The notes: generated by a model not told the origin, from the sequence alone. Positions 1-32,836 are shown, counted from the first letter of the stretch. The stretch: DNA of 64,000 nucleotides from Candidatus Sumerlaeales bacterium (GCA_038243585.1 JBBSQY010000012.1:3314-67313); one strand, 5' to 3'. Translations and numbers: made by a program.

Positions 1-1803
1 TTCGGTAATATTATGCGCACCTGGCGTTGATGGACGATTTCCGCGTAACATAAGAATTGTGCCGCCGCGAGGTCTCATTGATATGTATCCGTCATTAAAT
101 GTGTTGTATGGATTTATAATACTTCCATTTTCTGGGCCGGTATATGTCGTATCTACATAAATACTGCCTAATGCCTCAATCGCCCGGCTAAGGTTGACTC
201 TACCAGTTGTTCGATTGGCTTTAGGATCATGAATACCGTCGGCAGTCTGCCTTAGGAGGGGTTCCAGTGTATGAGGCGCTCCGTATCGTCCGATTCTCAC
301 CCGTTCCGCATGTTGCAGGCACGCCGCCGCTCCTGCTACGTATGGGCATGCGGCGGAAGTTCCACCAAAATTGGTAACAAAATTTCCAGAATTATTTCCA
401 CCTGCACCTATCGTATCACATGTATACGCGTTGTTAGAAGAACCCAGCAAAGACAACTTAGGCGAGGAATTGGAATAAGCTGTCACTTTATCCATAATAG
501 CGTCCTCAAAGAAAGCGCGTCCGCTTCCACAACTCGAAGATACGTGGGAGAGGCAGGATCCGGAATTTACGCACCAACCAAGTGTTCCTAAATTTGCCTC
601 ATATACGGCACCAACCGCCACTACGTTTGCGTTGCAAGCGGGGCTTCCCATAGAATTACAGAATCCATCATTACCTGAAGATGCAAAAATAGTTATGTTG
701 GCGGCATTACAGGCCGCTGCTATAGCGGTGTAATTACCAGTGTTGCACGTATTAGTATAATTGCCGCCGCCAAAACTAGTACTGATAATCATAATCGGGT
801 TATTCGGGTCTTTCTGCTGGTTCCGAAGACACCAATCCCAAGCGGCTTCTATAGTACCGGCGGCGGAAGATTGATTGGGGTCCGAATTTTTAGTAAGTTT
901 TAAAGCGTAAATTCGTGCAGCGTGCGCAACCCCACCAATATAATCTCCCACCGAACCTTCAGGCGGAATATCCCCCGCTGCTATTCCGGCACATGCCGTG
1001 CCGTGGTTCGCGGAAGAATGGTCTGGAGGAAGTGGATTAGTGTCTCCATCCCCATAGTCGTACCCGCCAATTACCTTTCCATTAGGGAATCCGCCGTTTC
1101 CAAGGTTTGGGTGGCGGTAGTCGACCCCTGTGTCTACAATTGCTATTGCAAGCCCCGAGCCATTGAACTCAGATCGTGTTTGCCCCGCCTGAATCAAAGG
1201 TATGCCTTGCCTGGTGTGTGGGATGACAATTTCGTCTGGAGAAATTGCCACTACATCAGGATCATTTTGCAAGAGTTGCAGTCCTTCAAAAGTGACATCA
1301 GCCGAAAAGCCAGGCACTGTCGTATATTTATGCTTGACTTTAATGATACCTGATAAGTTTCGGGCCAGCGCTTGTTCAACCTTTGTTTCATTGGTTTGTA
1401 CCAATGATTTCACCGAAGCGGGTTCGGTGTACACTGTTGTCAATTGTTTCGATTCAAATGCGAGTCTCACGATTACGGCCGTTACGGAAGTGCCTTCGCT
1501 GAACGGTTCCAGTATTTCGACATCGCTGTAAAGCTTATTGATAGGTGGTGGTGGAATCTCCAAAAAGGCCTTGTTGGCGACTGGAATGGAAGTTAAATCA
1601 AGCTGGGATGGAAGCATCGGATTTTGTGCAAGTGCAGTGGTGGAATAATCAGCAAGCGAAAGCATTGGAATTTGTGTTAGTGTGGTAGTGGCCCCGCACA
1701 CCAGCGGTAGAAGGATAAGCCCAACTGTCAGGAGCGGACGGATTTTTGGGTGTTCGAGAGCCGCTTTGAAGGGATTACTCGCTAAAATTTTATATACTGT
1801 CAC
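1..1803 (-). CDS. S8 subtilisin-like serine protease with signal peptide and I9-like propeptide; the C-terminus runs off the left edge of the window
   Basis: It is absent from the ORF track because no stop lies in the window. Hand translation of the minus strand is open from GTG 1803..1801 to position 1. The catalytic triad motifs are present: IAIVDTGVDY (Asp, near 1134), NHGTACAGI (His, near 995) and GGTSAACPYVAGAAA (Ser, near 345). A hydrophobic leader (LLTVGLILLPLVCGA) is also present. The GTG overlaps the upstream stop as GTGA; the start choice is uncertain. Confidence 0.85.
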   Translation of the reverse strand, partial: MTVYKILASNPFKAALEHPKIRPLLTVGLILLPLVCGATTTLTQIPMLSLADYSTTALAQNPMLPSQLDLTSIPVANKAFLEIPPPPINKLYSDVEILEPFSEGTSVTAVIVRLAFESKQLTTVYTEPASVKSLVQTNETKVEQALARNLSGIIKVKHKYTTVPGFSADVTFEGLQLLQNDPDVVAISPDEIVIPHTRQGIPLIQAGQTRSEFNGSGLAIAIVDTGVDYRHPNLGNGGFPNGKVIGGYDYGDGDTNPLPPDHSSANHGTACAGIAAGDIPPEGSVGDYIGGVAHAARIYALKLTKNSDPNQSSAAGTIEAAWDWCLRNQQKDPNNPIMIISTSFGGGNYTNTCNTGNYTAIAAACNAANITIFASSGNDGFCNSMGSPACNANVVAVGAVYEANLGTLGWCVNSGSCLSHVSSSCGSGRAFFEDAIMDKVTAYSNSSPKLSLLGSSNNAYTCDTIGAGGNNSGNFVTNFGGTSAACPYVAGAAACLQHAERVRIGRYGAPHTLEPLLRQTADGIHDPKANRTTGRVNLSRAIEALGSIYVDTTYTGPENGSIINPYNTFNDGYISMRPRGGTILMLRGNRPSTPGAHNITE

Positions 1804-3137
1804 TGTAGGTTCACCAACACTAGGACTAGGCCTGTTCCTTCTTTAAGTTCTGTCATGGCTTTGCCGATGACTGCTCCGTGAGAAATTTCTGTGTCTGTCG
1901 CTTTCATGGCGTGACCGGCAGTGTTGGAGGTGGTAAGTAGATCGCCAGGCGCTATTGATCCATTTTCAGCACTTACCTTTGCGTACACCCGTCCGGCCAT
2001 GGCGATCAGGTTGTTGCCGTCGGCCACGCCGTCTTGAGTGAGCTTAAGGCCCGGCCGTACGCCGCCAGCGCCGCTGATGATGCCGGCGACTTTGCGGTCG
2101 TAGGCGGTGGCGCTGGGTTTTACGTTGCCGGGATTGGCTTCGTCGATCACCATAACCGTTCCTGGTTCGGCGGAGGAGCCGTCGGTCTGATCGAAGCCCT
2201 CGGCGACGTCCGCGCCGCGAACTTCGACTACGGAAGCAGAGAGACTGTGACTAAAATACGCACCACCTAAGGCACGCACATTAAACGTCCCGACTCCTCT
2301 TGAATGGAACTCTACATCATTCTCGGTGTCAACATATCCATTAAAAACGAAGGAGCCGGCATGGTCAGCTTTTGCTTTTCTTCCAGCAGCAAAGGACGCT
2401 ATTCCGCCGGCTCGATTAAACGCTCCGCCAGGAATAGTGGCTTGATAGCCATCGGCATTATTATCGGCTCCACCTCCTACAACTCCCGTAGTATTCGGCC
2501 CACTTCCAACATTATTAGAACTGCCACCACCAATTACACCTCGGTTGGTATAAACATGATTATCAACTCCACCCGCTATTACTGCCCCGAAGATATCTGG
2601 AGCAATCTGGTTGCTTGCCGCACCGCCAATAATATTAGGGCCTAATGGGTTACGCTCAATACGCAATCCTCCACTAAGCCCCTCGGCCATTACCGCCATG
2701 GGCACTGCCTGAACCTGCGTGTGGGGCAGTAGAACGTTGTCTTCTACGCCACCGGCGACGGAGAGGTAGACGGACATGCCCGCTGGTGCGTTGTAATCCG
2801 CCGGTTCCAAGGTCTGCCCGGCGGCGGGTGTGCCTGTGCCGACGGCGTGGTTGACTACTCCGTCGGGTGACAGGACAACTTCGGCAGTTTCGGCGTAGAC
2901 GATTGTGCCGGGGTCTGTGGGGGTGGTTTTGTGGAGTATCTTGAACCACATGGTTTGGTTGCCGGAAAGCGGCGCGCCGGTAGGGGTGAAGGCTTTGCCT
3001 TGGTAGTTGAAGGTTAAGGGGACGTCGGCAAATGCTGAAGGTGCGCCGAAGATTGTGGCGGCTAGAAGAGCATACATCGCCGGCCTTGCCATAATACCAG
3101 GCGCAAACGGCCTGGCGGAAATCATTAGTTGTGTCAT
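1800..3137 (-). CDS. Secreted modular fibre/adhesin-like protein, paralog A (conserved N module, Gly/Asn-rich variable centre, conserved C module)
   Basis: 445 aa ORF with a signal peptide (ALLAATIFGAPSAFA/DVPL). Its N and C modules are about 85-92% identical to those of the two upstream paralogs. The centre is rich in GG..N..G repeats. The start overlaps the upstream stop as ATGA. Confidence 0.8.
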   Translation of the reverse strand: MTQLMISARPFAPGIMARPAMYALLAATIFGAPSAFADVPLTFNYQGKAFTPTGAPLSGNQTMWFKILHKTTPTDPGTIVYAETAEVVLSPDGVVNHAVGTGTPAAGQTLEPADYNAPAGMSVYLSVAGGVEDNVLLPHTQVQAVPMAVMAEGLSGGLRIERNPLGPNIIGGAASNQIAPDIFGAVIAGGVDNHVYTNRGVIGGGSSNNVGSGPNTTGVVGGGADNNADGYQATIPGGAFNRAGGIASFAAGRKAKADHAGSFVFNGYVDTENDVEFHSRGVGTFNVRALGGAYFSHSLSASVVEVRGADVAEGFDQTDGSSAEPGTVMVIDEANPGNVKPSATAYDRKVAGIISGAGGVRPGLKLTQDGVADGNNLIAMAGRVYAKVSAENGSIAPGDLLTTSNTAGHAMKATDTEISHGAVIGKAMTELKEGTGLVLVLVNLQ

Positions 3138-4414
3138 TGCAGGTTCACCAGCACCAGGACGAGGCCTGTTCCTTCTTTGAGTTCTGTCATGGCTTTTCCT
3201 AAAATAACGCCGCGTTCCGGGCCGGTGTCGTCGGCGCGCATGGCGTGACCTGCGGTGTTGGATGTGGTGAGGAGATCGCCGGGAGTGATCACGCCGTTTT
3301 CGGCGCTGGCTTTGGCGTAAACGCGTCCGGCCATGGCGATTAGATTGTTACCGTCGGCCACGCCTTCCTGAGTTAGCTTGAGGCCGGGTCTCACGCCGCC
3401 CGCGCCGCTGATTACGCCGGCGACCTTGCGGTCGTAGGCGATGGCGCTGGGTTTTACGTCGCCGGGATTGGCTTCGTCGATGACCATTACAGTGCCGGGT
3501 TCGGCGGCGGAGCCGTCGGTCTGATCGAAGCCCTCGGCGACGTCCGCGCCACGGACTTCGATCAGACTGGCAGACAGCTTACCATTTCCTTGAACAGCAA
3601 CTTGGCCATTATTAAAAATTTCAAGACCTTGTGTGACATTTCCATTTTCATCTGTTACTGTCCCAAATCGAATACCACCGGGCGCTTTTACATTAAATGA
3701 ACCAGCAATCGGTGGCGGTTGGTAATAATCTTGGTTATCACTAATCCAACTGCTCCATACGAAACATCCATTGGCGTTGGGACTACTTGCGCGAAAACCA
3801 GCGGGAAGTGAATGGTTACCTGTCGCATTGTTGTAGGAGCCTCCTGGGACAAACGAAAAATTTCCTGATGCAATGTTTTGATTACCGCCTAGAGACGCGG
3901 AATAAGCGCCGGTTGCCTGATTATTAGTTCCCAATGCGAACTTTTCCCCACCCAAAGTTTTCGCTATAACCGCCATGGGCACTGCCTGAATCGGCGTATG
4001 GGGCAGCAGAACATTTTCTTCTATGCCTCCGGCGACAGAAAGGTGGATGGTTGTTCCTGTGGGGGCGTTAAAATCCGCCGTTTCCAGTGACTGCCCGGCG
4101 GCGGGTGTGCCTGTGCCGACGGCGTGGTTTACTACTCCGTCGGGTGACAGGACAACTTCGGCAGTTTCGGCGTAGACGACTATACCGACGTCGGTGGGGG
4201 TGGTCTTGTGGATTATCTTGAACCACATAGTTTGGTTTCCAGAAAGCGGTGCGCCGGTTGGGGTAAAGGCTTTGCCCTGGTAGTTAAAGGTCAGCGGGAC
4301 TTCGGCAAACGCGGAGGGTGCGCCGAAGATTGTGGCGGCTAGAAGGGCATACATCGCCGGCCTTGCCATAATATTTGGCGTGAACGGCTTGGCAGAAATC
4401 ATTAGTTGTTTCAT
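3134..4414 (-). CDS. Secreted modular fibre/adhesin-like protein, paralog B
   Basis: 426 aa ORF with the same leader and the same N and C modules as paralog A. The central segment is different (LGTNNQATGAYSASLGGNQNIASGNFSFVPGGSYNNATGN...). It has ATGA overlaps at both ends. Confidence 0.8.
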   Translation of the reverse strand: MKQLMISAKPFTPNIMARPAMYALLAATIFGAPSAFAEVPLTFNYQGKAFTPTGAPLSGNQTMWFKIIHKTTPTDVGIVVYAETAEVVLSPDGVVNHAVGTGTPAAGQSLETADFNAPTGTTIHLSVAGGIEENVLLPHTPIQAVPMAVIAKTLGGEKFALGTNNQATGAYSASLGGNQNIASGNFSFVPGGSYNNATGNHSLPAGFRASSPNANGCFVWSSWISDNQDYYQPPPIAGSFNVKAPGGIRFGTVTDENGNVTQGLEIFNNGQVAVQGNGKLSASLIEVRGADVAEGFDQTDGSAAEPGTVMVIDEANPGDVKPSAIAYDRKVAGVISGAGGVRPGLKLTQEGVADGNNLIAMAGRVYAKASAENGVITPGDLLTTSNTAGHAMRADDTGPERGVILGKAMTELKEGTGLVLVLVNLQ

Positions 4415-5859
4415 TGCAGGTTCACCAGTACCAGGACGAGGCCTGTTCCTTCTTTGAGTTCTGTCATAGCTTTGCCGATAACTGCGCCGTGGGAAATTTC
4501 TTTGTCGGAGGCTTTCATGGCGTGGCCGGGGGTGTCAGCGGTGGTTAAAAGATCGCCTGGGGTGACGGGGCCGTTTTCGGCACTGACCTTGGCGTATACC
4601 CGGCCGGCCATGGCGATCAGGTTGTTTCCGTCGGCCACGCCGTCTTGAGTGAGCTTGAGGCCCGGCCTTACGCCGCCCGCGCCGCTGATGATGCCGGCGA
4701 CTTTACAATCGTAGGCGGTTGCGCTGGGTTTGACGTCGCCGGGATTTGCTTCGTCTATCACCATAACCGTTCCAGGTTCGGCGGAGGAGCCGTCGGTCTG
4801 GTCGAAGCCCTCGGCGACATCCGCGCCGCGGACTTCTATTGTTTTTGCGGAGAGAAGATCAGATACAAAGACAGGGCCGTCAAATGATCCAGCTCTGAAA
4901 TCCGATCTTGCGTATATACCGACTGCACCATTAGTTCCAATGCCTACCACCCCTGCGTGATTTACAGCACTAGTGTATCCTCCAATTGCGTCATTGTTAG
5001 TGCTTTCGCTACGTATTTCAGGGGATTGTATAGAAGTAGCATAGATAGGCCCATCAAATGCACCAGCTCTTCCAGTATCGGATCTACCATAAATTCCCAC
5101 GCCACCGTTAGTACCTATGCCTGTTATGCCTGAGTGATTTGCAGTTGTACTGTATCCTGCAATTGAATCAGCGACTGGGCTACTTGCTCTTATTGTGCCC
5201 GCTGCCAAGCTATCCAACTTTAGACTGTTGGTTGTAATAGTAGTAGCCAGCACAGCCACGGGTACTGCGTGAATTTGCGTGTGAGGCAGCAGAACGTTTT
5301 CTTCTACACCTCCGGCGACGGAGAGGTGGATGGTTGTGCCTGCTGGGGCGTTATAGTCTGCCACTTCCAGTGTTTGTCCGGCGGCGGGTGTGCCTGTACC
5401 GACGGCGTGGTTGACTATTCCGTCGGGTGACAGGACAACTTCGGCGGTTTCGGCGTAGACGACTGTGCCGGCGTCTGTGGGAGTGGTTTTGTGGAGTATC
5501 TTGAACCACATGGTTTGGTTGCCGGACAGCGGCGCACCGGTGGGGGTGAAGGCTTTTCCCTGATAGTTGAAGGTGAGGGGGACGTCGGCGCGGACGGCGG
5601 TGGGAGCGAGAAGTAAAATGGAGGCGGCTGTTAAGTAATGTGTCGCCTGTATGACAGTGTAGCTCTTGGGAGCGCCGGCATCCCGTCGGCTTAGGCTCCG
5701 CATGACAGCCGCTCTGCTTGCGCCGGAGAGACTTGCGACTGGAATTTCATTCATTTTCGCGGTGTCTGACTGTGCGCCTGGGATTAGACCGCCGGGATGC
5801 CGGAGCTCCCAGGAAATGCCGCTGGCTTGGGTTTTTGTTGAACTTTTAAATGGTGTCAT
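4411..5859 (-). CDS. Secreted modular fibre/adhesin-like protein, paralog C (divergent leader, internally duplicated central cassette)
   Basis: 482 aa ORF. The conserved N module starts at aa 92 (DVPLTFNYQGK) and the C module ends LVLVLVNLQ. The ATG at 5859 sits at the same CAATGA junction as in paralogs A and B. Internal starts at 5754 or 5703 (MRSLSRR...LLLAPTAVRA) are also possible. Confidence 0.75.
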   Translation of the reverse strand: MTPFKSSTKTQASGISWELRHPGGLIPGAQSDTAKMNEIPVASLSGASRAAVMRSLSRRDAGAPKSYTVIQATHYLTAASILLLAPTAVRADVPLTFNYQGKAFTPTGAPLSGNQTMWFKILHKTTPTDAGTVVYAETAEVVLSPDGIVNHAVGTGTPAAGQTLEVADYNAPAGTTIHLSVAGGVEENVLLPHTQIHAVPVAVLATTITTNSLKLDSLAAGTIRASSPVADSIAGYSTTANHSGITGIGTNGGVGIYGRSDTGRAGAFDGPIYATSIQSPEIRSESTNNDAIGGYTSAVNHAGVVGIGTNGAVGIYARSDFRAGSFDGPVFVSDLLSAKTIEVRGADVAEGFDQTDGSSAEPGTVMVIDEANPGDVKPSATAYDCKVAGIISGAGGVRPGLKLTQDGVADGNNLIAMAGRVYAKVSAENGPVTPGDLLTTADTPGHAMKASDKEISHGAVIGKAMTELKEGTGLVLVLVNLQ

Positions 5860-5940
5860 TGCAGGTTTACCGGCTCCAAAGCTAGGCCTGTGCTTTCTTA
5901 GGGTTTTGTATTGCGATGATAGCTTGATGTGACATCGGTT
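5856..5940 (-). pseudogene. Vestige of the 3' end of a fourth paralog of the fibre-like gene family
   Basis: On the plus strand, 5853-5912 (gtgtcattgcaggtttaccggctccaaagctaggcctgtgctttctt...) aligns by hand at about 45/59 nt with the 3' ends of paralogs A to C (gtgtcattgcaggttcaccagcaccaggacgaggcctgttccttctt...). It keeps the CAATGA junction but carries an in-frame TAA. Homology fades by about 5940. Confidence 0.6.
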
Positions 5941-5955
5941 GAGTCTTTAATGGGA

Positions 5956-6003
5956 AAGCGGTATCTGAACGGGTAACCCCGTCCTGCTACCGCACTCCAA
6001 ATT
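5956..6003 (+). repeat. 48 nt hairpin repeat ending in CCGCACTCCAAAT (family R3), copy 1
   Basis: aagcggtatctgaacgggtaaccccgtcctgctaccgcactccaaat has an outer stem GCGGTA/TACCGC. It is near-identical in length and ends to 32717..32764. Confidence 0.7.
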
Positions 6004-6066
6004 TGCTGGCTGTGGTTGCCGGGTTGGTTATTGTTATTAAGGCGTTCATTTGTGAATTTATTATGC

Positions 6067-6348
6067 TTAATCAGACGCATAGAGGTGCCAGAGGCGAGCG
6101 GCGGTTGGCTGTGGTGGGAAATATCCGGCATCCCATAGGTATGAGAATCCAAGAGCGGCGGCTGAGCCGTTTGCCGTCTGGGACATTCCTACGAGGGGCT
6201 GGCCCACGGTGGAGAACATGACTACTCCAACGCCCTGGCTGAATCCACCGCCGGAATTGATGGTGTCGGTGGCTGCGCTATAGCCGGATCGCGGGAGTAC
6301 AAGCAGAATGCCCAGGGCTACAAAAGTAAATCCGAATGCTAATCTCAT
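6067..6348 (-). CDS. Small secreted hypothetical protein (93 aa)
   Basis: The ORF has a clear signal peptide (MRLAFGFTFVALGILLVLPRSGYSA) and lies directly upstream of the paralog array on the same strand. No family was recognised. Confidence 0.4.
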   Translation of the reverse strand: MRLAFGFTFVALGILLVLPRSGYSAATDTINSGGGFSQGVGVVMFSTVGQPLVGMSQTANGSAAALGFSYLWDAGYFPPQPTAARLWHLYASD

Positions 6349-6504
6349 GTTTTATTCCTGATGTGGAAAGTAGAAAACAACCGTCATTGGTTCGGACAGA
6401 CGGCCATTCGGAATTCTTCTTAGCGGGATATTTTTTGGTGGCAAGCACTATCTTCAGGATTATAGTGTTTTGGGTTATAACTGGCCAAAAACGCGAATAT
6501 CGAT

Positions 6505-6596
6505 CTATGGCACCCTTTTAGGATGGGGGTTAAGACCCAAGGGTGTCGCTTCGCTTCCTGACACTTGGATATCTTATATGCCCTTTCGGGGCGGGG
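6505..6596 (+). repeat. ~100 nt structured intergenic repeat (family R4), copy A
   Basis: ctatggcacccttttaggatggg..ggttaagacccaagggtgtcgcttcgcttcctgac...atgccctttcggggcgggg aligns by hand to 8815..8922 in the same orientation. It contains several short hairpins. Confidence 0.65.
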
Positions 6597-6745
6597 TTTT
6601 CTCAGCAATCGTCGCGGAGTTTGTTCGCAATGGTACCGGATTTGGATATTGGGCCAGGTTTCTGGTCTTTCTGGATGCGCTCCAGTCTGGTCTTCATTTC
6701 TTCGAGGAACTTATCATCTCCAGTTGGGTTAACGACAGCTTGCAA

Positions 6746-7744
6746 TCAGCATTTACTCCAGAAGAAATGCACCAGATTGTCAACTTGATCCACCCCCAGC
6801 TTCTCTGGAAAATAATTAATATAGCCACACAGTGCCGATGGCGTCAGGACTTTCGCATAGGATTTTGCGGGCTTAGGCGGCAGGCTGCTGCGGGTTGCGA
6901 TTATGGTGCGAAGTTTTGTTTCCATACCGGCTTCTTTGAGCATCCTGTAGCAGAGGTAAGAGGCGCGGGCTACCTGCTTGTAGGGGTCATGGAAGTTTCC
7001 GGAGTCGGTGAAGTTCCGGCTCCAGAGTTTTACCTCGATGAGGTATACCCCCGGCGGACCAACGACGACGTAGTCAATTTGTGCCGTCTTTAAATGCTCC
7101 CCTTCGTAGTACAGGTAGCGGTTGTATTCCAGTCGCACATCGGCCAGGACGGTGAAGGAATCTGGCAGAGATTCCAAGTGGCGAAGGACGTCGATTTCGG
7201 CAACAGCGCCGGCGTATTCTTTACTCTCTAAGGCTGCGGTCGCTCCATCTAGTTTTTTGCGGAAAGGTTGGCGGTAGGACTCCACAAGATGGTGTTGGCT
7301 GTTGATATGATTTTGGAGGATCGCTTCTGTATGGAGGGGTAGTTTTTCCAAGTCGATGGCGCGCCGGGCATGCTGCTTTTGCAGATAGAGGCGGCGCAGT
7401 TTCAAGGGTCCCCAGAGGAACCACCTCTGCATCTGGCGGGCTGTGGATATTTTACCTTCTGGACTAAGGCGCTGATCAAGCTCAGCAATGTCGTAGGTAT
7501 GTTTGGTTTGCAGAGCGGCCAGTGCGGTGACATACTCCGCACGCTTCAGCGACACCAGATCTGTCAGTTCCCGCGTGGTGAGATTGAAGGCGTCCAGAGC
7601 GTCGATTTCGCTTTGGTTCCAGTCCTTTTCCAGTTGCGGCACCAGTGCGCGTAAATCATCTGGGGTGTCGGGATATAAGCCTATACATTTTAGCGGGGTT
7701 TGTATGTCTGTCCAGGCTCCGCTCTTGCCGTATACCTGGGCCAT
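6746..7744 (-). CDS. NERD (nuclease-related domain) protein with a helical N-terminal region
   Basis: 332 aa ORF. The C-terminal half has the NERD-like core AQIDYVVVGPPGVYLIEVKLWSRNF, preceded by GAVAEIDVLRHLESLPDSFTVLADV. Confidence 0.7.
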   Translation of the reverse strand: MAQVYGKSGAWTDIQTPLKCIGLYPDTPDDLRALVPQLEKDWNQSEIDALDAFNLTTRELTDLVSLKRAEYVTALAALQTKHTYDIAELDQRLSPEGKISTARQMQRWFLWGPLKLRRLYLQKQHARRAIDLEKLPLHTEAILQNHINSQHHLVESYRQPFRKKLDGATAALESKEYAGAVAEIDVLRHLESLPDSFTVLADVRLEYNRYLYYEGEHLKTAQIDYVVVGPPGVYLIEVKLWSRNFTDSGNFHDPYKQVARASYLCYRMLKEAGMETKLRTIIATRSSLPPKPAKSYAKVLTPSALCGYINYFPEKLGVDQVDNLVHFFWSKC

Positions 7745-7802
7745 TTAAATGCTGCCTGTTTTATATAGGAATTTTACGAAGATGATGAGCCTCAATTGCA
7801 TG

Positions 7803-8519
7803 TTACAGGCTCAAATCCTTTGGCCACAGGAAGTATGGCCCGAACCTTTTAGAGTAGCGATATTCTCCGCCAGCGGCTTTGCCGGTCTCTGTGAGGGTGT
7901 GTTTGGCGGGTTCTCCTTCGAGAAATCCCTTCGCCAGCAGCTTTTCTATGAGTTCCTGAGTTTTACAACCCAGTTCTTTTGCAAGCCTGGACGTGGTGAG
8001 CTTTTCTGACTCTTCCTCTTCGGCGGCTATCAGGGCTGATTCATCGGGTTCTTTGGTCTTCTCAACAGTCTCGGCAGACAGACGAATCTCTTCGCTTACA
8101 CGGATCAGCCGCTGAGCCTCTTCATAGGTGTCTTTATACAGATCCGGCTCTTTGTCCCGCTCTACGAACACGCCCATTTCGTTGTTATTAACCTGGCTGA
8201 ATTCGTAGAGGTTCATGGAGGTGATAATTGCGGATGATTCGTTGAGGTAGCACTTTGCGTGAAGGTTCTGGCAGAAGCTGGTCCTGACAAAATCGAGGGA
8301 GCGAAGCCACTTTATCTCCTGGGGTTGCAGTTCGCTTTTGCCGAATACCACGCGGACGTCGATCTTGAGTCGGTTTTTATCCTCGAGGAGTTCTTTCATG
8401 CGGTCGTTGAACTTGAGGAACGGGCTGATGATGATCAACCGGTCTTTTGCGCCTTTGATGAGTTCTTCGAGGAAGTAGTTTGTCGCGCTGGTATTTAGGA
8501 ATTTAGCCATGGCGACCAT
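7803..8519 (-). CDS. Phospholipase D-family (HKD) nuclease-like protein with a C-terminal helix-turn-helix-like tail
   Basis: 238 aa ORF with a single HKD motif context (NLHAKCYLNESSAIITSMNLYEFSQVNNNEMGV). The layout is Nuc/restriction-endonuclease-like (DRLIIISPFL...). The C-terminal ~70 aa is basic/helical (TTSRLAKELGCKTQELIEKLLAKGF). Confidence 0.7.
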   Translation of the reverse strand: MVAMAKFLNTSATNYFLEELIKGAKDRLIIISPFLKFNDRMKELLEDKNRLKIDVRVVFGKSELQPQEIKWLRSLDFVRTSFCQNLHAKCYLNESSAIITSMNLYEFSQVNNNEMGVFVERDKEPDLYKDTYEEAQRLIRVSEEIRLSAETVEKTKEPDESALIAAEEEESEKLTTSRLAKELGCKTQELIEKLLAKGFLEGEPAKHTLTETGKAAGGEYRYSKRFGPYFLWPKDLSL

Positions 8520-8652
8520 GACATACGCCCGCTGTCAAAGGGATCAAGCTTTTTTGTTTGGTAAACGCTAGCGAAGTTAATGGGGAGATTGATGATAAAA
8601 TATGATTTCGGCTGATTCCGGATTTTCGTGGGGTGGTCGCTCCGCTTGGGTT

Positions 8653-8680
8653 AAGGCGGTGATGAATCACCGCACTCCAG
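8653..8680 (+). repeat. Short variant of hairpin repeat family R3 (GGCGGTGAT/ATCACCGC + ACTCCAG)
   Basis: aaggcggtgatgaatcaccgcactccag has the same terminal CCGCACTCCA motif as the copies at 5956 and 32717. Confidence 0.5.
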
Positions 8681-8814
8681 GATGTTGGTCTTGGTTGTTT
8701 GCGGGTATGTGGTAGGTGGTGGGACGGGGGTGGGTTTTGGGACTGGCGGGATTGCCTTTCGTCCTGACGCAGGCGGGGTGCTTATGCTCCTTATTTAATT
8801 TCAGAGCTTAAGTT

Positions 8815-8922
8815 CTATGCCACCCCTTCAGGGTGGGACTTGGGGTGGGGTTGAGACCCAGGGCTGCGTCGCTTTGCTCCTTACCCGGGGCTAACGTCTG
8901 GGACCACTCCGTGGTCGGGTGG
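8815..8922 (+). repeat. ~100 nt structured intergenic repeat (family R4), copy B
   Basis: ctatgccaccccttcagggtggg...ggggttgagacccagggctgcgtcgctttgctccttacccggggct...gggaccactccgtggtcgggtgg. Hairpins include CCACCC/GGGTGG and GACCAC/GTGGTC. It is a direct repeat of 6505..6596. Confidence 0.65.
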
Positions 8923-9072
8923 AAGTTATCTATTGTGCTTTGCGGGAAACCCCACACAGGAAATGAATTCATTCCTACATAGGAATGTTGGAATAATGGT
9001 GTAGGGCATAGCAAACACTTTTTGGCCGGCGGGATATGATGGCCAAAATTACTATTGTGGCCGGGAGTTGAG

Positions 9073-9327
9073 ATGGAAGATGATCGTAAGCAACAAATCA
9101 AAGATGCAAATACCATGCTTGGTGCTGGTGCGGGTCTGGCTACTTTCGGGGCGGGCAGTGCCATGTTGTTAGGGTCTGTCTGCCCGTTATGTATAATTGC
9201 TGCTCCTGTGCTGGTTGGCATTGGGGTGGTGGGCAGGATCAGGGCTGGTAAACAGCAAAAGGCAGTTGAGGGCGATAATGACTTAAGTGAGGAGCGAGCC
9301 GATGCCGTCAGTTACGAACCGAACTGA
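9073..9327 (+). CDS. Small hypothetical membrane protein with a CPLC motif
   Basis: The ORF-track ORF is 9055..9327, with an internal ATG at 9073 (MEDDRKQQ...). A Gly/Ala-rich hydrophobic stretch contains CPLC. No family was recognised, and coding status is uncertain. Confidence 0.3.
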   Translation: MEDDRKQQIKDANTMLGAGAGLATFGAGSAMLLGSVCPLCIIAAPVLVGIGVVGRIRAGKQQKAVEGDNDLSEERADAVSYEPN

Positions 9328-9349
9328 ATCAGTTACAAACCGAACTGAA
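9308..9349. repeat. Tandem direct repeat, 2 x 21 nt
   Basis: tcagttacgaaccgaactgaa / tcagttacaaaccgaactgaa are 20/21 identical and directly adjacent. Confidence 0.8.
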
Positions 9350-9486
9350 GATGAGAAGAATAACGGGGATTGTAGCACCCACGGATCATGTTCAAGTAAG
9401 TGGCGATGCCCGCCGTGTGTCATGATCTGGAGCATCTATGTTGTCGCTGCTTTGCTCTATTTTTTGTTTAAATGAGGCAAAAGCGG

Positions 9487-9840
9487 TTAGAGGATTCCAG
9501 CGGACCGGCTTAGTGCCTGGTGATGACGGCGGACTCCGGCGCAGACCAGATCGCAGACCTCGAACACGGTGTCGTCTTTAATAAAGTAGAATACCTGGGT
9601 TCCGGCTTTGCGCGAGCCAACTATGCCGGTCTGTTTTAAAACGGACAGGTGTTTAGAGGTGATTGGCTGATTCTGCTGCAGGTTGGCAGCCAGATCATTT
9701 ACACTCATCTCGCCGGCTTCCCGAAGTGATATCATGATTCGCAGGCGGGTCTCGTCGGCAAGTGCCCGTAGTCTTTCAACGGCAAGACTGATTATCTCTG
9801 GGGTGAGTTCTTTGGGCATAGCATAAGGCTCTATTCCCAT
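9487..9840 (-). CDS. ArsR/SmtB-family transcriptional regulator (BigR-like context)
   Basis: The winged-HTH signature is LRALADETRLRIMISLREAGEMSVNDLAANLQQNQPITSKHLSVLKQTGIV. The gene is divergent from a sulfur-handling operon. Two Cys residues lie in the C-terminal segment (FEVCDLVCAG). Confidence 0.85.
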   Translation of the reverse strand: MGIEPYAMPKELTPEIISLAVERLRALADETRLRIMISLREAGEMSVNDLAANLQQNQPITSKHLSVLKQTGIVGSRKAGTQVFYFIKDDTVFEVCDLVCAGVRRHHQALSRSAGIL

Positions 9841-9844
9841 ACAG

Positions 9845-9854
9845 GAATATATTC
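9845..9854. promoter_or_regulatory. Candidate operator: perfect 10 nt palindrome GAATATATTC in the ArsR / sulfur-operon divergent intergenic region
   Basis: The palindrome is seen directly, 5 nt from the ArsR start codon. The AT-rich region that follows contains TATAAA-like boxes. Confidence 0.3.
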
Positions 9855-9948
9855 TATTGTTATGGTCGTCTATGGCTCGGCGTTGGAATAACTATTGCGT
9901 CTTTTCAGGTCAAAATTATCATCATTATAAAATAGGTGGATTCGAAAA

Positions 9949-10407
9949 ATGGACGTTAAAGAAATCAGCGATACCGTATCAGTCGGCTCTCAGCCCACTG
10001 AGCAGGATTTGGATAATCTGGCGGAGCAGGGATTTAAATCCATAGTTAACCTTCGCACTGACGAGGAAGAAGATCAGCCACTACGTCCTGATGCTGAGGG
10101 TGATCTGGTCAGGTCGAAGGGCCTGGAGTATCGTAATATTCCAGTGTCTATGAAGAACATGGAACCGGCCCTGGTCGACAAGTTCCGCAACGATTTGGCT
10201 AGCCTGCCGACCCCGACCTATGTTCACTGTTTAAGCGGACAGAGGGCCGGAGCTTTTGTTATGATGGACCAGGGGATTCGCAAAAACATGAGCGGAAGTG
10301 ACGTTCTTGAGCAGGCTAAAAAGATGGGTTTTGAGTGTGATAAGCCGGAGCTGAAACAGTTTGTGACTCAGTATGTGGACTCACACAGTAAGAGTACTAA
10401 GGGCTAA
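9949..10407 (+). CDS. DUF442 / TIGR01244-type sulfur-transferase (phosphatase-fold) protein
   Basis: ISDTVSVGSQPTEQDLDNLAEQGFKSIVNLRTDEE...YVHCLSGQRAG is typical of the DUF442 domain found at Blh N-termini. A GGTGGA Shine-Dalgarno sequence lies upstream. Confidence 0.7.
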   Translation: MDVKEISDTVSVGSQPTEQDLDNLAEQGFKSIVNLRTDEEEDQPLRPDAEGDLVRSKGLEYRNIPVSMKNMEPALVDKFRNDLASLPTPTYVHCLSGQRAGAFVMMDQGIRKNMSGSDVLEQAKKMGFECDKPELKQFVTQYVDSHSKSTKG

Positions 10408-10427
10408 GGGGCAGAAAGGACCGTTGC

Positions 10428-11834
10428 ATGTTTCTGGAAACCATAGAATCCAAAGGACTGGCACACATCTCATACATCCTTGGCGATGATGATGTGGGAG
10501 TAGCCGTGGTTATCGATCCCCGCCGCGACATTGATGTGTATCTGGAGCGCTGTCGCAGCCATGGTGTCAGGGTGACTCATATCCTTGAAACTCATATCCA
10601 TGCGGATTTTGTTTCTGGGAGTACAGAACTGGCGGCTGTGACTGGGGCGGAAATTGTTGGGGGTGCAAGTGATGATTATGGTTTTCCGATCAGGCAGGTC
10701 AAGGAAGGCGAAGAGATAAAAGTCGGGCCCAAGATTACGATTCGGGTGTTTGAGACTCCGGGCCATACGCCGGAACACGTTTCCTACCTGGTTAGTGGCG
10801 GTCGGGGTTCGAAGGGACCATGGGGGCTGTTTACGGGGGATACGCTTTTCGCAGGTGAGGTGGGGCGGCCGGATCTTCTGGGGTCTGACCAGGTAGAGGA
10901 CCTGGCAAAACAGTTGTATCATACTCTCTTCGATAAGTTGCTGAAGCTGGGGGATGAGGTCGAGATTTATCCGGCACACGGAAAAGGCTCGCCTTGCGGA
11001 GGCAACATTGGCGACCGGCTTACGAGCACTATTGGTTATGAGCGCCTGCATAACCCCAAGTTCACGGCTAAAAGCGAAAGCGAATTTGTGGAGATGGTGC
11101 TGAAAGATCTGCCACCGGCGCCGTCATACTATCCGCGTATGAAAAAGGTTAATGCGAAGGGACCATCACCGCTTCGCTGCATTCCTACTATTCAACCAAT
11201 GGAACCGGATGATGTTGATGCAGCGCAGTCGGACTCGACGGTCCTGGTTTTGGATACGCGAGAGATAGAAGGGTTTGCAGGGGCCCATATTCCCGGGTCC
11301 ATGAACATTGCATTGCGAGACGAATTCCCGGTGTGGTCCGGTTGGATGCTTGAACCGAATCAGAAGATTCTTCTGGTTCTTGAGCGACATAGTGACCTTG
11401 ACGCCGTTCAGCGGCATTTACTGCGGATTGGTATCGAAAACATTATCGGCTTTATTCGGCTGGGCATACGTGGCTGGATCGAGGCAGGTCGACATTTTGA
11501 CCATATTGATAACGTTAGTGTCCACGAACTTCATGAGCAACTTAAGAACGGGGCAGATGGGCTTCAGCTTTTAGATGTGCGTGCAGAGTCCGAATGGAAC
11601 TCGGGGAAAATTGCGTCTGCTAAACATGCTTACCTGGGACATCTTGACGAGGAACTCGGAAGCCAGCTGGATCCGGATAAGCCGGTTTTGACCTATTGCG
11701 GATCTGGATACAGGGCCAGCATTGCCGCCAGCGTTCTTCAGCGTAAAGGATATAAAGACGTAAGGAATCTGCCGGGAAGTATGAAAGCGTGGAAAGCCGC
11801 CGGATTTTCTACTGTTGATCCTGCTGAAAACTAA
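10428..11834 (+). CDS. MBL-fold persulfide-dioxygenase-like protein fused to two rhodanese domains
   Basis: The metal-binding motif is ETHIHADFVSG...TPGHTPEH. The C-terminal rhodanese domain has the active-site loop YCGSGYRAS. The first rhodanese-like domain lacks the Cys. Confidence 0.85.
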   Translation: MFLETIESKGLAHISYILGDDDVGVAVVIDPRRDIDVYLERCRSHGVRVTHILETHIHADFVSGSTELAAVTGAEIVGGASDDYGFPIRQVKEGEEIKVGPKITIRVFETPGHTPEHVSYLVSGGRGSKGPWGLFTGDTLFAGEVGRPDLLGSDQVEDLAKQLYHTLFDKLLKLGDEVEIYPAHGKGSPCGGNIGDRLTSTIGYERLHNPKFTAKSESEFVEMVLKDLPPAPSYYPRMKKVNAKGPSPLRCIPTIQPMEPDDVDAAQSDSTVLVLDTREIEGFAGAHIPGSMNIALRDEFPVWSGWMLEPNQKILLVLERHSDLDAVQRHLLRIGIENIIGFIRLGIRGWIEAGRHFDHIDNVSVHELHEQLKNGADGLQLLDVRAESEWNSGKIASAKHAYLGHLDEELGSQLDPDKPVLTYCGSGYRASIAASVLQRKGYKDVRNLPGSMKAWKAAGFSTVDPAEN

Positions 11835-32522: not shown

Positions 32523-32716
32523 CTATAGCAGGATCGCTGTCAACTACTAGCCTGGCTAGCTAACAGAAACAGGTAAAACCCGCGTCAAAGTTAATATTTT
32601 CAACCGCGCCGTGATGCTCTTGTATAAGCCGAGGAAACCATCTGTACCGCATACCCACCTCAAATCCAGGCGCATCACCGTTCAGCCAGACTCCCTGGTG
32701 GCTTTGGTCTATAGAA

Positions 32717-32764
32717 AAGCGGTAGCCGGGCGGGCACTACCCGCTCTGCTACCGCAGTCCAAAT
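32717..32764 (+). repeat. 48 nt hairpin repeat family R3, copy 3
   Basis: aagcggtagccgggcgggcactacccgctctgctaccgcagtccaaat has the same length, ends and stem (GCGGTAGC/GCTACCGC) as 5956..6003. Confidence 0.7.
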
Positions 32765-32836
32765 ACGCGCATGTTGGTGCCGGGGTTGAAGTTGCAGATA
32801 CGGAATCTGCCAAGCAGAATCGCAAATATGGGTAAT

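Follow-up and report, generated by a model that had tools for sequence, protein, structure and literature searches.

Positions 1800–5859 of a 64,000-nucleotide stretch of DNA from a Candidatus Sumerlaeales bacterium (GCA_038243585.1, JBBSQY010000012.1:3314-67313; the whole stretch is called the window here) encode three genes, C, B and A, which lie head-to-tail on the minus strand. The N-terminal (N) and C-terminal (C) modules of these genes are shared by all three at 80–87% nucleotide identity, and the centres between the modules are unalignable in nucleotides. It is intriguing how three adjacent genes could keep both of their ends in common and share no alignable nucleotide sequence in between. 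An initial annotation of this DNA had noticed AT-rich centres between GC-rich constant modules, and had favoured the exchange or acquisition of cassettes between gene-converted, homogenised flanks over slow divergence after duplication. We lean towards the view that the genes are a trio of mosaic fibre genes, in which a duplicated native scaffold had its centres replaced by foreign AT-rich cassettes.

Protein alignment divides the three products into a constant N module of 112 residues, a variable centre of 129–148 residues and a constant C module of 147 residues. Gene C (4411..5859; 482 residues from the ATG at 5859), defined by the list of open reading frames (ORFs) and the alignment, is the first gene of the array and comprises a long leader, the N module (5248..5583, residues 93–204), centre C (4855..5247, residues 205–335) and the C module (4414..4854, residues 336–482); its true start may be a later Met. 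Gene B (3134..4414, 426 residues), whose start overlaps the stop of gene C (ATGA), has its N module at 3965..4300 (residues 39–150), centre B at 3578..3964 (residues 151–279) and its C module at 3137..3577 (residues 280–426). The start of gene A (1800..3137, 445 residues) overlaps the stop of gene B in the same way, and is followed by the N module at 2688..3023 (residues 39–150), centre A at 2244..2687 (residues 151–298) and the C module at 1803..2243 (residues 299–445). All of these features are on the minus strand. In BLASTN searches the shared sequence appears as a constant block of 877 nucleotides, in which the C module of one gene is joined to the leader and N module of the gene that follows it. 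This block is repeated at 84% identity (2686–3562 versus 3963–4839), with further matches at 1800–2225 and 5246–5589, and no further family copy was found elsewhere in the window. The block edges (2225/2227, 2686, 3561/3562, 3963, 4836/4839 and 5246) lie 1–15 nucleotides from the boundaries given for the variable centres in the initial annotation, and the flank blocks end sharply there, in line with the sharp collapse of identity that it had described.

The centres also differ from their flanks in composition. Their G+C content (GC) is 0.44–0.49, against 0.57–0.63 for the N and C modules together and a window mean of 0.543; windows of 100 nucleotides, in agreement with the earlier hand counts, give 0.37–0.43 at 3601–3750 and 0.71 at 3351–3450. 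This step is located almost wholly at third codon positions. The GC of third positions (GC3) is 0.33, 0.31 and 0.28 in centres A, B and C, whereas it is 0.72, 0.62 and 0.64 in the respective N modules and 0.63, 0.71 and 0.68 in the C modules. Since the GC of second positions in the centres is equal to or above that of the flanks, amino-acid composition does not account for the step. Two-change-point maximum-likelihood fits place the GC3 change points 1–17 codons off the identity boundaries, with log-likelihood ratios of 23–29 against a permutation maximum of 11.6, and confirm that composition steps at the module boundaries.

For the same amino acid, the constant modules favour C-ending codons (GGC, GCC, AAC, GAC, ATC, CCC) and the centres favour T- or A-ending ones; the difference in C versus T at third positions between constant modules and centres is highly significant (Fisher p = 2e-41). 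When relative synonymous codon usage (RSCU) is correlated with that of the rest of the window, the constant modules give r = +0.56 and the centres r = -0.41. The background GC3 is 0.60±0.05 in the 32 other ORFs of the window, in which none of 1,218 windows of 130 codons has a GC3 below 0.39. The GC3 of every centre is even below the pooled intergenic GC of 0.49. Native GC3 is also seen in the gene C leader and in the genes that precede the array.

Is a low-GC3 centre simply what genes of this kind have? As a control, we collected 79 loci encoding the C module from species-representative genomes, in which 75 genes were measured and 71 had a usable locus background. The GC3 of the centre minus that of the C module is -0.03±0.06 in these 75 genes, with a minimum of -0.22, compared with -0.30 to -0.40 in the genes of the window. 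Relative to local background, the centre differs by +0.03 in the 71 family genes and by -0.27 to -0.32 in the window genes. The GC3 trough of the window is exceptional within the family, and the idea that a low-GC3 centre is a family-wide trait, for instance one related to translation pausing, is rejected by the 75-gene control. The most negative differences elsewhere come mainly from tandem pairs (loci L056 and L001), plus a single-copy gene in locus L015.

The flanks, on the other hand, appear to be native and to have been duplicated in this lineage. N modules are 85–88% identical among the three copies, and the next best of 1.84 billion representative proteins scores 82 bits; a hidden Markov model search of the same proteins with the N module gave no relative below E 1e-18 besides its own cluster. 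C modules are 86–91% identical among the copies versus at most 70% to outside proteins. In these comparisons, neither the N nor the C module of A, B or C has any relative nearly as close as its counterparts in the other two genes. The high flank identity in the initial annotation needs one correction, in that the modules are not near-identical: the number of substitutions per synonymous site (dS) between flanks is 0.40–0.82, and the ratio of nonsynonymous to synonymous rates (dN/dS) is 0.09–0.17. Nor did we find the gene conversion that was thought to homogenise them, as Sawyer-type run tests and a site-pattern runs test for conversion tracts were not significant (best uncorrected p = 0.04 of six). 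One stretch of the N module that matches at 69 of 70 nucleotides (p = 0.009 with permuted mismatch positions) was not counted as evidence of conversion, because amino-acid constraint confounds it. With such synonymous divergence, low dN/dS and no tracts, purifying selection on the assembly domains suffices to account for how well the flanks are conserved. Scans for the N module in GTDB genomes and JGI metagenomes found no sister locus; a gene 88% identical to a neighbour of the array is present in Logan contigs, and those contigs end short of the array. A relative at this level of identity is present in samples SRR27433005, SRR27433007 and SRR27433009.

A different arrangement of native and foreign parts would be that the whole operon, comprising the fibre genes and the peptidase gene behind them, is a foreign AT-rich island whose N and C modules turned GC3-rich later. 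Native paralogues elsewhere in the genome could have converted them, gene conversion among the copies could have been GC-biased, or codon selection could have acted strongly on the conserved domains. We regard such an island as unlikely, though it draws on real features of the locus. Directly downstream of gene A lies gene D (1..1803, minus strand), a partial gene of at least 600 residues that begins with a GTG overlapping the gene A stop (GTGA) and runs off the window edge; its product is an S8 peptidase of the subtilisin type that has an I9 propeptide. The GC3 of gene D is 0.41, and its codon usage is unlike that of the rest of the window and nearer to that of the centres (RSCU r = 0.03 versus background and 0.38 versus the centres). 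Moreover, the C module is above local background GC3 by 0.058 in the 71 family genes (p = 3e-7), and the constant modules of the window have its highest third-position C/(C+T), 0.82. What such an island does not readily accommodate is that no conversion tracts were detected and the flanks are at dS 0.4–0.8, that the 64-kb window holds no further family copy, that the N module lacks a close relative anywhere among the 1.84 billion representative proteins, and that GC3 is native both in the gene C leader and upstream of the array.

The relatives of the centres argue for replacement of the centres. Centre A is 43–47% identical over 120–137 residues to proteins of other phyla, compared with 34% to centre B; the top outside matches of centre B are at 41–45%, and centre C has hardly any relatives. 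It is conceivable that the centres diverged in place instead, by fast diversifying selection after duplication, with codon selection or GC-biased conversion ineffective in them and their third positions decaying to AT. Centres A and B are indeed still homologous (34% over 96 residues, E 3e-14), at third positions C is replaced by T, the way in which mutational bias usually runs, and milder dips of the centre are seen in the tandem pairs L056 and L001. Decay of this kind would, however, hardly take the centres to a GC3 of 0.28–0.33, far under the intergenic GC of 0.49, and a flank dS of 0.4–0.8 represents too few substitutions for GC3 to fall from about 0.65 to 0.30. Centre C is of a different repeat type, centre A is nearer to outside proteins than to centre B, and the centres of the 75 other family genes are not below background. 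We therefore consider divergence in place quite improbable. The incongruence between centres and flanks, the foreign codon usage of the centres and the repeat type of centre C together suggest that the centres were replaced, and it was in preferring cassette exchange or acquisition to slow divergence that the initial annotation is best supported.

A tandem pair of family genes was also found in a Phycisphaerae metagenome-assembled genome (MAG; JAUIHS010000001, 5651–8432, locus L001). Its N modules share 98% nucleotide identity with a dS of 0.05, its C modules 91% with a dS of 0.33, and its centres have 13–33% amino-acid identity. From these sequences, the pair looks clearly like module-wise exchange, and is a clearer case of it than the window.

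Could the mosaic have been made by the assembler, by stitching cassettes or alleles of different strains or organisms together via the conserved modules? All that is known of these proteins comes as singletons on a single NCBI contig of 76.6 kb, which is probably from a MAG, and there are exact repeats of 42–49 nucleotides between the copies. Exact repeats of at most 49 nucleotides are shorter than usual reads and the final k-mers of assemblers, and misassembly is therefore unlikely. Furthermore, the reading frames are all intact, the six boundaries fall at the same domain linkers, the copies differ by 13–20% and are therefore not collapsed repeats, and the cross-phylum family members, at about 64% amino-acid identity, have no long exact words in common with them. 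An assembly artefact is, in our judgement, very improbable.

Programmed variation, whether by a diversity-generating retroelement, a shufflon or invertible cassette, or a pilE/pilS-like expression site with silent cassettes, is barely credible: variable cassettes between constant sequences are superficially similar, but there is neither a second copy (template repeat) of any centre in the 64-kb window nor a reverse transcriptase or recombinase among the 30 neighbouring ORFs scanned, which sets the array apart from the targets of diversity-generating retroelements, no Rfam element was found in 1–10500, and the three copies, unlike those of pilE/pilS and vlsE-type cassette systems, are full-length genes with their own start codons, leaders and predicted signal peptides and without significant conversion tracts.

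What, then, do the three genes encode? The proteins are predicted to carry Sec-type signal peptides. They have no Pfam match at E≤1, Peptidase_S74 included, and nothing was found for them in PHROGs. The N modules of A, B and C, however, weakly match the NCBIfam model NF053851, Bdello_MAT_N ('mosaic adhesive trimer family chimeric fiber protein'), at E 1e-7 to 2e-6, and this model is also matched at E≤1e-3 by 13 of 41 full-length relatives. In the structural model of gene B, the N module is predicted to be a beta-sandwich with a predicted local distance difference test score (pLDDT) of about 92, and the boundary between it and the centre is a low-confidence linker at residues 146–156.

Centres A and B contain head repeats of the GG-x-x-N-x-A-x-G type, reminiscent of YadA and UspA1, and centre A gives a weak alignment with the head of UspA1 (E 0.1); in centre B, the repeats are followed by an SFVW...F.V.A.GG motif. 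Centre C consists of two repeats of about 44 residues with the pattern G-x-G-[IV]-x-G. Homologues of the centres have weak matches to the UspA1_rep and LbR_Ice_bind models. They are mostly found in proteins that end in Peptidase_S74 (PF13884), some of which have the same N domain, and the C module of the window proteins therefore occupies the position of S74.

The C module is the most conserved part of the proteins, with about 64% identity across phyla. At this level of identity it is present in more than 2,200 proteins of more than 10 phyla, with more than 580 matches in GTDB representatives, often behind collagen, FG-GAP/VCBS or beta-roll regions. Neither Pfam nor NCBIfam has a model for it, and it is a candidate for a new family of domains. 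A profile of the C module found nothing among PDB sequences, and tblastn against 50,697 phage genomes gave no result. In Foldseek searches, the AlphaFold model of the C module of gene A (pLDDT 87) matches the C-terminal fragment of phi29 gp12 (3gqh_A, E 2.5e-3, query-normalised TM-score (TMq) 0.60) and pre-mature gp12 (3suc, TMq 0.64), as well as phage cement or decoration proteins (gpD-like). The top PDB match of the full-length gene B model is again pre-mature gp12 (3suc, E 8e-7). In BFVD, the C-module model matches large Caudovirales proteins with E values down to 5e-12 and TMq of 0.72–0.79, and 'preneck appendage protein' (E 1e-9 to 1e-8) and 'tail fiber protein' entries are among the matches. 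In addition, the C module is encoded at 30–50% identity in 19 IMG/VR contigs, where it forms the very C-terminus of proteins with matches to tail-fibre PHROGs.

These viral contigs (L083–L101) are AT-rich, with a GC of 0.33–0.42, except for L083, whose GC is 0.64. The protein of L085 also has repeats of the centre-C type (35% over 111 residues).

At the start of the C domain, residues G308, D310, E313 and F315 (gene A numbering) are invariant, and are candidate residues for trimer assembly and autocleavage. The C-terminal domains of the K1F and phi29 spikes are auto-chaperones (PMC3357383), and T5 pb1 has an intramolecular chaperone that is cleaved (PMC4690869). By analogy, we infer that the C module is a trimerising auto-chaperone.

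Putting these observations together, we propose that the three genes encode secreted, probably trimeric surface fibres that resemble phage tail fibres and have three parts. The first, a signal peptide with the constant N domain, a putative distant relative of the N-terminal domain of Bdellovibrio mosaic adhesive trimer (MAT) fibres, would anchor the fibre to the cell. The second would be an exchangeable central cassette of beta-roll or beta-helix type, presumably the exposed, ligand-binding part. The third, the constant C domain of about 147 residues with a predicted phi29-gp12-like (gpD/beta-tulip-like) fold, takes the place that the S74 intramolecular chaperone has in related fibres; as an auto-chaperone it could bring about trimerisation, and it may later be removed. 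The array would have been born by tandem duplication in this lineage, after which the N and C modules would have been kept by purifying selection, with native C-ending codons. Non-orthologous cassettes, drawn from a foreign and AT-rich gene pool that we infer to be that of phages or other bacteria, would have taken the place of the centres, with the exchange points at the linkers between domains. Such replacement would produce both the sharp collapse of identity and the third-position GC step. The binding parts of phage tail fibres are typically exchanged as modules.

The trio appears to belong to a known kind, the mosaic trimeric fibre adhesin, and its novelty would be the internal position of the variable cassette and a C-terminal domain absent from the libraries. 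One of the closest comparisons is with the MAT fibres of Bdellovibrio bacteriovorus, which have an invariant N domain believed to lie at the surface of the predator, variable tips and one S74-ended subfamily (PMC10769870). Like these, the window proteins would be secreted and would have a conserved N-terminal domain, with several paralogues per genome and a mosaic build in which one part is kept for presentation and another diversified; the S74-ended subfamily also has its parallel here, in that relatives of the window centres carry S74 where the window proteins carry the C module. Unlike MAT fibres, the window proteins have about 430–480 residues rather than about 1,000, their variable part lies inside the protein, flanked by two constant modules, and not at a C-terminal tip, their C domain belongs to a different, unannotated fold family, and the organism is not a known predator.

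Phage tail fibres and tailspikes with a C-terminal auto-chaperone, such as phi29 gp12 and, with S74 domains, the K1F endosialidase and T5 pb1 (PMC3357383, PMC4690869), similarly have a body of beta-helix or beta-roll type with a conserved domain at its C-terminal end, and it is to this group that the predicted fold of the C module and its homologues in viral contigs point. The window genes are chromosomal, however, with predicted Sec-type signal peptides and no phage genes around them among the neighbouring ORFs scanned, and their products match neither Peptidase_S74 nor, in sequence, gp12. Trimeric autotransporter adhesins (YadA, UspA1) share the type of head repeat found in centres A and B, but the window proteins lack the YadA-type C-terminal membrane anchor in the Pfam search. 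As their N and C modules differ from those of the autotransporters, the route of export and anchoring must differ too.

Several observations weigh against the explanation that we favour. No donor of the cassettes was found above 47% amino-acid identity, and the source contig is probably a MAG. The match to Bdello_MAT_N is weak, at 27–32 bits, and is under the NCBI curated cut-off of 60 bits. The predicted similarity of the C module to gp12 is at the level of fold only. Lastly, the S8 gene translationally coupled to the array is also AT-rich at third positions; given its GC3 of 0.41 and its centre-like codon usage, the foreign unit may be larger than the cassettes.

The S8 peptidase might process the fibres. 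It is not a conserved neighbour of the family, since an S8 gene adjoins a family member in only one of the 79 other loci (L077). We rejected the idea that genes A and B took their leaders from the gene D signal peptide (p = 0.2), and no decayed family copy was found in 1–1800, the stretch being the S8 gene.

On the other side of the array, directly upstream of gene C, a sequence of 57 nucleotides (5853..5909, minus strand) corresponds to the 3' end of a C module with an in-frame stop and the gene junction. This relic implies that the array has lost at least one upstream copy. A sigma-70-like promoter match (10 of 12 consensus positions) at 6459..6488 on the minus strand is a candidate operon promoter, by consensus match only. 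Between this promoter-like site (6488–6459) and gene C lies an ORF of 93 residues (6067–6348, minus strand) with a signal-peptide-like N-terminus; it has no family match, and the operon may start with it. Genes of NERD-domain and PLD-like nuclease type, which immediately precede the array (6746–8519, minus strand; native GC3 0.61–0.63), could be defence-related. A weak direct similarity of 70 nucleotides between 5955–6023, upstream of the array, and 32716–32784 (74%, E 5e-4) may be due to chance. Elsewhere, the window is chromosome of an ordinary kind, with rpsA, mutS, trpC, trpD and era among its genes, and one neighbouring gene has its nearest relatives in Abditibacteriota and Armatimonadota, at 58–62% identity.

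A broader interpretation, which we offer tentatively and hold to be possible rather than probable, is that the trio represents a very large, unannotated class of bacterial surface fibres. The class would be defined by the phi29-gp12-like C-terminal auto-chaperone, span the more than 2,200 proteins and more than 10 phyla noted above, and have this domain in common with phage tail fibres, its members being cellular 'host-range' adhesins. In the present genome, the native scaffold would have repeatedly captured foreign AT-rich, possibly phage-derived cassettes, and the coupled S8 peptidase may mature the fibres.

If our proposal is true, the logic of MAT and tail fibres, in which constant anchor and folding modules surround a swappable binder, would reach beyond predators and phages, and a widespread C-terminal domain without a Pfam or NCBIfam model would likely be a trimerisation or auto-chaperone module. 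The codon step within a gene would then be a clean and computable footprint of cassette import, with which other genomes might be screened for adhesin modules that were exchanged recently.

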